In this document: positions 29,501-32,500 of the stretch, one piece after another
Position numbering within the stretch: position 1 is the stretch's first letter
Layout: the number at the start of each line of letters is the position of its first letter
Assembly (NCBI RefSeq): GCF_037042905.1
Contig: NC_087250.1
Coordinates: forward strand, 7,132,001 to 7,196,000
Direction: 5' to 3'
Source: Lytechinus pictus
Lineage: Eukaryota
DNA length: 64,000 nucleotides
Position numbers and translations under genes: made by a program
Notes under the pieces: generated by a model
Seen by the model: the letters and a program-made list of their open reading frames with translations, nothing else
What the model was told of the DNA's origin: nothing
The model's database searches: none

Positions 29501-32500
29501 ACAGAATTAATACTTCAATGATTACCAAACAGAAGTACAAGAAAGAAAACTAAAATTCATTTTGATAAGAAACTTACGCACGAGACATTGTCTTATTCAC
29601 AAAGTCGCCGCCCATCGGGATATCAGTGAGCTCGTTGTACTGGAGGTAGAAGGAACTGGTGCCTGTGATATGAGCGAATGTTCCATCTTCTATGTAAGCA
29701 ATCTCATTATAACTGAGAGATATCTGAGAGGTCAGCGGGTTATCCTCAAAATGAGTGATCATGATACGACCGATTTTATTACTGCTAAGATCCCTGGGAA
29801 ATGAAAAGCGTGAGAAGTTGAAATAAAAGTGCATATAGGAAGAAAATTCTGACTGTAAATAAGAAGACATGGTACCATATCTCCCAATAGTTGGAGTCAT
29901 ATCTTCCTTGCAAAGCTTGAACGTCAAAATGAGATGAAAATGAGAGAGCATCGATTTTAAATAAAATGCACATACATATAAACACATATGCATGTACATA
30001 CATATACACATATTCAAATACATGTATATCACTATATTATATTTTAATAAATCATATATTATATATTATATTACACAAATTATTTTATTGAATGTAAGTG
30101 TAAAAATCAGGACTTAAAGTTTTTTGAGGGCTCATTACCTCTAAATATAATTTCCATGATATATGATGCTACTTTTTAACATATACACAAGAAACTTTAT
30201 GGATTATTGTATATTCATGGGTAACTTGCAGTCTGATTAGAGCGTTACACCCATCGAAGGCTGTATCTGATATCTTATCAATGCCATTACTTGACAGAGA
30301 TAGGGTAACAATCTACTTACAGACTAGTAAGACTGGTACACCCATCAAAGGCTGTATCCGGTATCTTATCAATGATGTGACTTGAAAGAGATAGGGTAAC
30401 AATCTACTTACAGACTAGTTAGACTGGTACACCCATCAAAGGCTGTATCCGGTATCTTATCAATGTTGTTACCAGACAGAGATAGGGTAACAATCTACTT
30501 ACAGACTAGTAAGACTGGTACACCCATCAAAGGCTGTATCCGGTATCTTATCAATGTTGTTACTTGACAGAGATAGGGTAACAATCTACTTACAGACTAG
30601 TAAGACTGGTACACCCATCAAAGGCTGTATCTGGTATCTTATCAATGTTGTTACTTGACAGAGATAAGGTAACAATCTACTTACAGACTAGTTAGACTGG
30701 TACACCCATCAAAGACTGTATCTGGGATCTTATCAATGTTGTTACTTGACAGAGATAGGGTAACAATCTACTTACAGACTAGTTAGACTGGTACACCCAT
30801 CAAAGGCTGTATCTGGGATCTTATCAATGTTGTTACCAGACAGAGATAGGGTAGAAAGCTGTGAATGGTTGGTAAACATATTCTCATGTAGGAAATGAAA
30901 CTGGTTACTATTCAGGTATCTATGGAAAGAAAGAAAATAATACAAGATATTCAAACAACCAAATCACGATATTCAATCAATGGTCACATAGTACATAGGT
31001 AAACTACTAATCTAATATCAATTAATCTGTTCTAACTAATTAAATTGGCAACAATTATATATATATATATATATATATACAAATATTTACCCCAGTTACA
31101 TAGTTTGAATGAAAATAAAATATGGACATATCTTAGTATAAATTGCACAAATATATGGATATAAAATTAAAAAGTTGCCAATTTGTATTTTTAAAAGGTG
31201 CCAGAAGCCAATACTATGAATCCAACGCCAAAGATAATGTCAAGGCCACAGCCGCCAAGGCAACATAAGCGTTGTGCTCCTCGAGGAGCAAAACACTTGA
31301 GAGTATGCAGGTTCTCTGGGATCATTAAAGAAGCTTTGAGCGATCAAATAGGATACACAACAGTTAGCGACAATATTTCAAACATATATGGGAATTTCGA
31401 ACTAAATCCAATGAAATTACCACTTGGCATAATTGCTTGAATTCATGAGCCAAATGATTGTATAAAATATATAACTAAGAAATAGACAAAATTAATATGG
31501 AATTCTAGCCAGATGTGTTTTTTTTGGAAATTCATAATAATAATAATTATACACTATCAAACATGTGCTTAACCGTGATGGTGATCTTCATTTTGATCAC
31601 TTTCTGATTTATAGATGTTATGAATCACAGAAATTTTTTTTCAAAGAAAGTCTTTGTTCAATATTTCTCACACAGGGAATAATTTTGCTTTACACATTTG
31701 AATAGTATTTTTTATAAGAGAAAGCTCTCAACTAAGTAATGTACAGTCCTATGTAAAATATGCTATACAAATGACTTTATGCATCGCAGTCTTTCAAAAA
31801 TGTGGAGCAAATTGCGATGCGATATTAGGGAAATAATTCCGTCACAAATCATGTAATCAAATATAAAACTGTATGTAATACATTACATACAATATTGTAC
31901 CAGAGCTGCCAACATTGGGAAGATAGAATCCAGTAGATTTCGCGGAGGTATGGTTTTGTGAGGGAGCGGCGGAACGTTGTCCCACGGATGGGAGTTTTGG
32001 GGAGCAAAAACACATTAAGAAAAAAAAAAAACATTTGATTTTTTAAATAATTCATTAAAAAATGGATTCAACAAGAAAATACCTTTAATTGTCCAGAGGG
32101 GGAAGGGGCTGCAGTAGTGCCAGTGGTAAACATACATGGTAAATGAGCTTGCCTGGCCCTGCAAAGACTTATAAACTCTTTGTGGCCTGTTTAAAGTCTC
32201 TTAGGGATTCCTGTGAAAATTGTCACACAGTCCCATTCCGCTTGAAAATTATCTTTATATTTCGAAAAGTATTTTGTCGTCTTGGTCATGGATGACTCGA
32301 TCTCCATGGTCACTGACAATGCGATTGTAGTGTGGATGAATCAGGACAGGGCATGCTTCGCACAGGCACAGCTCAGCCAGCCAGCAAGCGCCAGGCTAGC
32401 TCACTCCCGAAAGAGAAAATGTTCGAATCCGATCAACCCAAGTGAAAGTAGGGGAAAAAATCTCCACTTTGCTTCTGTTCTTCAGGATTGTCAATAAAAT

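Follow-up and report, generated by a model that had tools for sequence, protein, structure and literature searches.

The 64,000-nt window analysed here (Lytechinus pictus, contig NC_087250.1, positions 7,132,001 to 7,196,000) carries on its minus strand the sea urchin orthologue of Acanthaster planci LOC110984001 (P0115), an uncharacterised starfish protein of 2,866 aa with LRR, cadherin, discoidin, EGF and thrombospondin domains. By tblastn, residues 23–866 of P0115 follow in order along the window from 54.9 kb to 9.3 kb, and residues 1796–1852 have an 81% identical match at C6:7099197-7099367 (minus strand), downstream on the same contig. P0115, a scallop protein (P0132) and an acorn-worm protein (P0142) are all colinear with the window's exons. 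These orthologues were picked by tblastn against the window of all 150 proteins listed from a search with P0001 of Strongylocentrotus purpuratus (34,345 matches at E ≤ 0.001, ordered by the sum of their LRR stretches). P0018 and P0062 had the highest identity among the matches listed, yet were rejected as orthologues, not being colinear with the window. A protein search with the 48 aa of the LRR exon considered here covered proteins of 85–2000 aa (16 candidates) and returned two matches: an S. purpuratus fragment of 153 aa and an LRR protein of Entamoeba that is unrelated. Being longer than 2000 aa, the true orthologues were missed by it. Within the 811.7-Mb assembly, a DNA search gave three matches, all inside the array described below, and a protein search (96 candidates scored) gave seven, all at this locus. 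By these comparisons, the host gene is a conserved, single-copy, very large gene of extracellular matrix type and not a diversifying immune receptor.

Three consecutive LRR-encoding exons are central to the analysis (Table 1). Of 205 prefiltered minus-strand ORFs, 200 went through a Pfam scan (those excluded were five long ones of low complexity at 47.8–48.2 and 52.8–54.2 kb), which returned LRR_8 for the LRR exon (E = 1.2e-9, ORF 30775-30963) and for the exon upstream of it (E = 1.2e-8). The LRR exon is 81% identical to P0001, and the next exon is 68% identical to residues 604–672 of P0115. Mapping the starfish orthologue places about 15–17 coding pieces upstream of the LRR exon within the window, with which the number 17, given to this exon in an earlier sequence-only reading, is plausible. 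All homologues have exactly one LRR at the place that bears the array (residues 553–602 of P0115, 550–596 of P0132 and 295–341 of P0142), followed directly by the sequence of the next exon (from residues 604, 598 and 342, respectively).

Table 1. Exons, monomers and other tandem arrays of the LRR gene, in window coordinates
Feature	Position	Strand	Description
Upstream exon	33498..33635	-	138 nt, two LRRs; contig pieces 33504-33635; RNA joint to 30919
LRR exon	30776..30919	-	144 nt, two LRRs, phase 2-2; RNA joints at both ends
Intron containing u1–u6 entire	29794..30775	-	982 nt, removed in RNA
Next exon	29578..29793	-	216 nt, three LRRs; acceptor cccag/G, donor GC/GTAAGT; RNA joint and contig piece from 29578
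Monomer 1 (exon copy)	30762..30852	-	Last 77 nt of exon plus 14 nt of intron; authentic GTAAGT donor
Monomer 1 donor GT	30775-30774	-	RNA joint
u1	30671..30761	-	3 differences from monomer 1; private Ala>Val
u2	30580..30670	-	5 differences from monomer 1
u3	30489..30579	-	5 differences from monomer 1
u4	30398..30488	-	2 differences from monomer 1; mosaic of exon-type and unit-type
u5	30307..30397	-	8 differences from monomer 1; conserved LRR Asn to His
u6, terminal decayed monomer	30216..30306	-	22/91 differences; GCAAGT instead of GTAAGT
76-bp x2.2 array	36327-36493		Spans and reiterates an exon acceptor
188-bp x4.3 array	40107-40924		Spans and reiterates an exon acceptor

At the donor end of the LRR exon, seven 91-bp monomers lie head to tail on the minus strand (window 30216-30852). 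TRF reported them as one array at 30246-30853 (period 91, 6.7 copies, 94% matches, 0% indels, score 1062), ending its call at 30246. Each monomer consists of 77 nt of coding sequence, equivalent to one whole LRR, and 14 nt of intron; the six intronic units (u1–u6) have neither the acceptor of the exon nor its first 67 nt. The 14-nt intron part is identical to the letter in the exon copy and u1–u5, giving six exact donor strings spaced 91 nt apart, and the identity around the donor reaches 8 letters back into the exon in addition to the 14 intronic ones. This donor-side stretch is not unusually invariant (the chance that 10 variable sites would all miss the last 22 of the 91 positions is ~0.06). 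The sequence-only reading had described six copies of the 77-nt exon end plus intron behind the exon, with no indel or stop in their coding part, a distal unit with a distinct peptide and a GC donor, and a stop (CTG TAA) that precludes read-through; all of these were recovered here, the distal unit being u6.

In four of four RNA runs (three studies), the first donor was joined directly to the next exon and the array was skipped. The run records listed no RNA source, yet all four behaved as RNA. The joint connects 29792/3 to 30775/6 and its ends read CT..AC on the plus strand, that is GT..AG on the minus strand; first mates lay on the plus strand only, which fits RNA transcribed from the minus strand. 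Depth at this canonical joint was 14.6 against an exon depth of 18.1 in the X1 contig and 8 against 9.47 in X5, and the joint was carried by five reads with three starts in X13 and by one read in X14. Exons 16, 17 and 18 of the germline gene are spliced in sequence. Of the six identical GTAAGT donors the spliceosome takes the most upstream alone; its five counterparts, the GC variant and all of the 'coding' sequence of the units leave with the 982-nt intron. RNA depth was zero across bins 30346-30768 (the array interior, including u1–u4) in all four runs, and no joint from a downstream donor or from the CAAG/T site considered below was present among the RNA joints listed for these runs (nine more were recorded). 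The reads sampled make up about 6% of each raw run, with an exon depth of 1–7 reads at which rare use of a unit could escape notice, and reads fitting two places may be under-counted inside the repeat. A 158-nt X1 contig matches 30130-30287, the distal array edge and in part u6, with no differences. None of the 40 RNA letter differences listed (162 more were recorded) fell in the LRR exon. A search for transcripts with unit-specific variants had been proposed as a check of the sequence-only reading; in the four runs, at low depth, no RNA uses a unit.

The units resemble the exon closely, and u1–u5 each differ from it by only 0–3 amino acids. Five variants are shared by several copies, four of them synonymous and one a Gly/Ser change, in agreement with the previous count, and the four shared variant blocks occur in five different combinations among six copies. 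The mosaic unit picked out earlier at 30407 corresponds to u4, which is exon-type at two places and unit-type at two others. These combinations support exchange of sequence among the monomers. Since monomer 1 is itself the exon end, unequal exchange would necessarily give in-frame chimeric exons; of the proposal that exchange swaps LRRs in frame, the exchange among copies is borne out by the mosaics, and chimeric exons would be its expected product. In u6, eight differences fall within the first 61 nt and 14 within the last 30 nt. We also considered u6 as the ancestral exon end and rejected this, as the LRR ends like monomer 1, and not like u6, in S. purpuratus, the starfish and the other homologues.

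Open reading frames in the units are not remarkable, because, of the 231 single changes that the 77 nt allow, only two create a stop, and the probability of no stop in 10 changes is 0.92. Across the 10 sites variable among the exon copy and u1–u5, six are synonymous (expected fraction 0.247, P = 0.018–0.021). Taken alone, this excess over all 10 sites could mean selection on the units. When the sites are divided, four of five shared variants are synonymous (P = 0.015) and two of five singletons private to a unit are (P = 0.36), so that the synonymous excess is found entirely among variants that the units have in common with the exon copy, which is under selection. Unit u6 evolves near neutrally (pN 0.155, pS 0.25). 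Moreover, private changes fall on residues that are invariant in four homologues, namely the LRR Asn in u5, the Ala of the ..AF motif in u1 and the Pro of IP in u6, from which constraint on the units appears relaxed. In terms of the codon-based comparison that had been suggested, the variable sites overall show a synonymous excess (P ~0.02), the singletons are neutral-like and u6 is nearly so.

Two further arrays in the gene duplicate only an acceptor and ~30 nt of exon, without a whole LRR, and boundary-spanning duplication in this gene is not LRR-specific. Three of its four long-period arrays touch exon borders (P = 0.038 under random placement), which hints at a non-random element.

We consider the array to be, with good probability, an ordinary intronic minisatellite whose first monomer spans the exon–intron boundary: it is a tandem array, its first monomer crosses the donor boundary, and splicing in the RNA sampled starts from the most upstream donor. 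Tandem duplication, through replication slippage or unequal exchange, would have reproduced the 77-nt exon end with the adjoining 14 nt of intron. The array may then have grown to seven monomers and been partly homogenised via unequal crossover or gene conversion, while the terminal monomer u6 would have escaped homogenisation and then decayed. Purifying selection would act on monomer 1 only, as the real exon end, and the units would not be kept as coding cassettes; shared variants would be mostly synonymous because monomer 1 exchanges with the units. A neutral minisatellite had been offered as the alternative in the sequence-only reading, and it fits the skipping in RNA, the homologues and the near-neutral u6.

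The other proposal of that reading, a germline cassette reservoir in which exchange between exon and units is maintained for adaptive allelic diversity of the LRR on its ligand face, fares less well. Exchange does occur, given the mosaic variants, every unit keeps an open frame, 6 of 10 variable sites are synonymous (P about 0.02), and the G/S site is a variable position of the LxxLxLxxN strand. However, u1–u5 supply few amino-acid changes, and two of these four destroy residues that all four homologues share without variation; chance alone would leave the frames open; the singletons look neutral and u6 nearly so; the sister arrays hold no whole LRR; and the gene is conserved, single-copy and matrix-type. 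Together with the lack of RNA use in the four runs, these observations make such a reservoir very unlikely. Similarly unlikely, if slightly less so, is a non-neutral array in which unequal exchange with the units, recurring in the germline, renders the LRR unusually polymorphic (Gly/Ser, Ala/Val, Asn-Asn/His-Ile) and the array is selected as a local generator of diversity; in a wider sense, the gene with its three boundary-spanning arrays might show a tendency of sea urchins to build or remodel LRR exons by junction-spanning tandem duplication. It is also improbable, but a little less than either, that the array serves as a regulatory minisatellite, with identical decoy donors or copy number tuning how efficiently the host gene is spliced or how much mRNA it yields. 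A regulatory tuning role has reportedly been suggested for the IVS7 repeat of human F7. The long identity around the six donors would suit such a role, and pseudo-sites of the F7 type are described as functional once the first site is lost (PMC1557585), but in the two contig runs ~80% or more of the exon depth is carried by the canonical joint, and any splicing cost would therefore be small.

Inclusion of the units as nascent alternative exons, either as 60-nt in-frame pieces or through downstream donors giving truncated or NMD isoforms, is hardly credible. A pyrimidine-rich stretch precedes CAAG/T in five units (u1, u2, u3, u5 and u6), and the implied piece has the right arithmetic (60 nt, phase 2-2). 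Against this stand the zero depth over u1–u4 and the lack of any such joint among those listed in four runs, a 20-residue product without the LxxLxL strand of an LRR, and homologues without an extra repeat at this LRR. The acceptor that had been noted in five copies is indeed present with the stated length and phase, but it is probably ancestral and not a gain: at the position of the exon's Gly, three of four homologues carry Ser. The units lack the acceptor of the exon and have no RNA cover in the four runs, unlike tandemly duplicated mutually exclusive exons, of which every copy brings an acceptor and a donor and enters some transcripts. Mis-assembly of the array or of its copy number is just as hard to credit. 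The array interior is seen in the assembly alone, but the units differ by ordered, mosaic substitutions instead of being identical, the distal edge is matched exactly by the X1 contig, and an array of 640 bp would presumably be short relative to long reads.

The boundary-spanning minisatellite, our preferred reading, has counterparts in several human genes, and the present array adds one case to this class. Such repeats are described for F7 IVS7, the interferon-inducible gene 6-16, CBS, LMNB2 and PDGF, and for F7, LMNB2 and PDGF the authentic donor is reported as the sole one in use (PMC1557585). The closest likeness is to the 37-bp VNTR of F7 IVS7, where an authentic donor is followed by several identical pseudo-donors and normal RNA shows use of the most upstream alone (Borensztajn et al. 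2006, PMC1557585). That repeat is polymorphic (5–9 copies) and, by the same account, only 4 of the 37 bp of its monomer are exonic, whereas 77 of 91 nt are exonic in the urchin monomer and make up a whole LRR; the hosts also differ, a mammal (human) in one case and a sea urchin in the other. LMNB2 (100-bp monomer, 10–15 repeats) and PDGF intron 4 (81-bp monomer, 16–18 repeats) resemble the urchin array in monomer length as well as in the exclusive use of the authentic donor, and the boundary-spanning monomers of 6-16 and CBS intron 13 likewise reiterate the donor (all as described in PMC1557585).

As in agnathan VLR loci, LRR-coding pieces adjoin an LRR gene and short homology could guide copying (as outlined in PMC3308329). 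In the VLR system, by the description given there, the germline gene is incomplete, hundreds of diverse cassettes flank it, and assembly is somatic and resembles gene conversion (PMC3308329). The urchin gene, in contrast, is complete and normally spliced, its exons being joined in RNA and colinear with full-length homologues, and in place of many diverse cassettes it has six near-identical units in an ordinary intronic tandem array, five of which differ at 2–8 of 91 nt, with no further copy in the assembly.

As matters stand, the overall importance of the array is small. For work on 5' splice-site choice it offers a natural test case from an invertebrate, in which six identical donors follow one another at 91-nt intervals and the first alone is seen used, and it illustrates that open frames and a synonymous bias in young exon-derived repeats are no proof of function if one of the repeats is a selected exon. 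It also points to a pitfall in gene prediction: in S. purpuratus, the model of the gene ends exactly at the read-through stop of the LRR exon.

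TRF resolved one array at 30246–30853 (period 91, 6.7 copies, 94% matches, no indels, score 1062), which was read on the minus strand, that of the host gene, as seven monomers of 91 nt (see table). Such a tandem array is certainly beyond chance. Monomer 1, the exon copy, consists of the final 77 nt of a 144-nt leucine-rich repeat (LRR) exon and the initial 14 nt of the intron, and is followed by six intronic units (u1–u6). The 14-nt intron string, starting GTAAGT, occurs in six exact copies, while the donor of u6 is GCAAGT and the 22 differences in this unit are split between its first 61 nt (8) and its last 30 nt (14). 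The units, frames, donors and variants described in the sequence-only reading were confirmed in every detail but one, the label "exon 17", which is plausible given that about 15–17 upstream coding pieces map in the window. The exon frame is open through the 77-nt part of all seven monomers, which had been taken, together with the lack of indels, as suggestive. However, the 231 single-base substitutions open to this 77-nt stretch include just 2 that would introduce a stop, so ten substitutions would leave the frame open with a probability of 0.92, and the absence of indels is unremarkable with ten substitution sites.

Features of the array, its host gene and corresponding homologues (window coordinates unless given as residues)
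Feature	Position	Strand	Remarks
LRR exon	30776–30919	minus	144 nt
Next exon	29578–29793	minus	
Upstream exon	33498–33635	minus	
Exon copy (monomer 1)	30852–30762	minus	reference for difference counts
u1	30761–30671	minus	3 differences from monomer 1
u2	30670–30580	minus	5 differences from monomer 1
u3	30579–30489	minus	5 differences from monomer 1
u4	30488–30398	minus	2 differences from monomer 1
u5	30397–30307	minus	8 differences from monomer 1
u6	30306–30216	minus	22 differences from monomer 1
188-bp array, 4.3 copies	40107–40924	gene on minus	last monomer spans acceptor and first ~30 nt of exon
76-bp array, 2.2 copies	36327–36493	gene on minus	78% match; duplicates acceptor and first ~30 nt of LRR exon 36201–36351
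Fourth long-period array	10246–10488		touches no exon
Acanthaster planci LOC110984001 (P0115, 2866 aa)	residues 553–602		corresponding LRR; next exon from 604
Pecten maximus LOC117335429 (P0132, 2915 aa)	residues 550–596		corresponding LRR; next exon from 598
Saccoglossus fragment (P0142, 507 aa)	residues 295–341		corresponding LRR; next exon from 342

RNA was examined over 29500–33700 in four of the 15 public runs listed, comprising contigs from two studies (X1 and X5) and raw stranded ribo-depleted RNA reads from a third (X13 and X14, about 6% of each run sampled). All four runs contained a joint from 30775/6 to 29792/3 that skips 982 bases and has CT..AC ends on the plus strand, or GT..AG on the minus strand (depth 14.6 in X1 and 8 in X5; 5 reads with 3 starts in X13; 1 read in X14). 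Depth across the exon (bin 30769–30909) was 18.1, 9.47, 6.62 and 0.94 in X1, X5, X13 and X14, respectively, and zero in the array interior (bins 30346–30768) in every run, a count in which reads fitting two places may be under-represented. At the other end of the exon, position 30919 was joined to the upstream exon in X1 (depth 16.5) and X5 (depth 8.2). Therefore, at these low depths and judging from the joints listed, the first of the six identical donors is the one in use and u1–u6 are intron, though alternative use may occur rarely. The sole record touching the array, a 158-nt X1 contig (depth 2.2) matching 30130–30287 exactly, crosses the u6 GC site and continues into the intron, and is thus unspliced. 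Choice of the first donor would be compatible with a 5'-to-3' scanning model derived from work on the F7 repeat in humans (PMC1557585). Elsewhere in the region, intronic sequence at 31615–33447 had summed contig depths from hundreds to >60,000, with raw RNA reads on both strands and many loose ends, a behaviour resembling that of dispersed repeats or fragments of transposons that are expressed.

Identity between the exon and a 153-amino-acid LRRC15-like model from S. purpuratus (P0001) is 81%, and the C-terminus of the model coincides exactly with the CTG-TAA read-through stop of the exon. Aligned to 30775–36299, P0001 starts within an LRR exon, and appears to predict only a truncated part of the same large gene. 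Giant LRR proteins dominated the phmmer matches to P0001, and of the 150 proteins listed from that search, three were colinear with the window by tblastn (P0115, P0132 and P0142, from a starfish, a scallop and an acorn worm). Pfam assigns around ten LRR_8 stretches to the starfish and scallop proteins and, after these, cadherin, F5/8 type C, EGF, thrombospondin type 3, thrombospondin C-terminal and laminin-G-like domains. Starfish residues 23–866 map in order from 54.9 kb to 9.3 kb of the window, and residues 1796–1852 have an 81% match about 33 kb beyond this on the same strand of the contig (C6:7099197–7099367), extending the host gene to at least ~88 kb. The host is the orthologue of these uncharacterised giant proteins (2866 and 2915 amino acids), the names returned for which record no function. 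In all three homologues the sequence of the next exon directly follows the corresponding LRR; there is one LRR in the protein versus seven monomers in the DNA. Across the 811.7-Mb assembly no further copy of the exon or units was found, as all 3 matches of a DNA search and all 7 matches among 96 scored candidates of a protein search fell at the array locus. Six letters in the X1 and X5 contigs differ from the assembly at 33498–33503, where the upstream exon ends, implying Ser>Thr and one silent change, and thus a coding polymorphism between individuals in the host gene.

The units had been proposed to form a reservoir of spare LRR cassettes, and a single result favours that idea. Among the exon copy and u1–u5, all 10 variable sites lie inside the 77 coding nucleotides, and 6 are synonymous and 4 non-synonymous, where a synonymous fraction of 0.247 would be expected (P = 0.018; 0.021 when stratified by transition/transversion). 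The whole excess is confined to the five variants that several monomers have in common (4 synonymous, P = 0.015), whereas variants private to one unit appear neutral (2 synonymous, 3 not; P = 0.36). Among the three non-synonymous private changes, u5 has His in place of the asparagine that defines LxxLxLxxN, along with Ile in place of Asn at the variable position next to it, and in u1 the Ala of the ..AF motif is replaced by Val; the former asparagine and this alanine are invariant in all four aligned homologues. In u6, the Pro of the invariant IP has become Ser, and pN/pS for this unit is 0.155/0.25. The shared excess would arise because the selected exon copy stands on one side of every difference that is shared: changes in that copy would have passed through a filter of selection before exchange carried them to neighbouring monomers, and those arising within units would have escaped the filter. 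With the units removed as intron and a single LRR in homologues, a cassette reservoir is not supported, and the alternative offered alongside it, a neutral minisatellite, is.

We infer that the units are neutral and that the array originated by tandem duplication across the exon-intron boundary. The shared variants distinguish an exon type from a unit type, the two being shuffled in five combinations among six copies, which bears out the mosaic previously noticed. Together with divergence from monomer 1 that, u4 excepted, climbs along the array (3 differences in u1, 22 in u6), this mosaic points to ongoing unequal exchange or conversion among monomers, the terminal monomer (u6) having probably decayed. 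The CAAG|T "acceptor" of the units was thought to have been gained; however, three of four homologues have Ser at the Gly/Ser site, so AGT and CAAG|T are probably the older state. A loose analogy had also been drawn with agnathan VLR loci, which PMC3308329 describes as having a germline gene that is incomplete, diverse flanking cassettes by the hundred, and somatic assembly; the first two of these features are absent from the urchin gene.

A closer parallel is the human F7 IVS7 minisatellite (37 bp, 5–9 repeats), which PMC1557585 lists with those of interferon-inducible 6-16, CBS, LMNB2 (100 bp) and PDGF (81 bp), the authentic donor alone being used in F7, LMNB2 and PDGF. As in F7 IVS7, the urchin array is tandem, its first monomer crosses the exon-intron boundary and the most upstream donor is used; by these three features it falls in this known class of boundary-spanning minisatellites. 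It differs in the exon share of its monomer (77/91 nt, a whole LRR) and in its host, an echinoderm. Our literature searches, which were not aimed at echinoderms, found no paper on boundary-spanning arrays in this group, and absence is not claimed.

Boundary-spanning arrays in this gene are not special to a whole LRR. TRF detected four arrays with a period >70 in the whole window, and neither the 188-bp nor the 76-bp array contains a whole LRR. The former adjoins a 72-nt LRR exon (~40040–40111) and, by reading of the sequence, has three intact pseudo-acceptors and one decayed upstream in the intron; in the latter the distance upstream to the pseudo-acceptor is 78 nt, and read-through from it soon meets a stop. 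Three of the four arrays overlap an exon border within 9.3–54.9 kb (P = 0.038 for at least three under random placement in the gene, a post hoc test with approximate exon coordinates), which could be chance or could hint that duplications are preferentially tolerated or promoted at splice junctions. The introns of the host gene also carry long microsatellites, namely (GTA)n at 53481–54140 (222 copies) and a 5-bp unit at 43405–43945 (108 copies).
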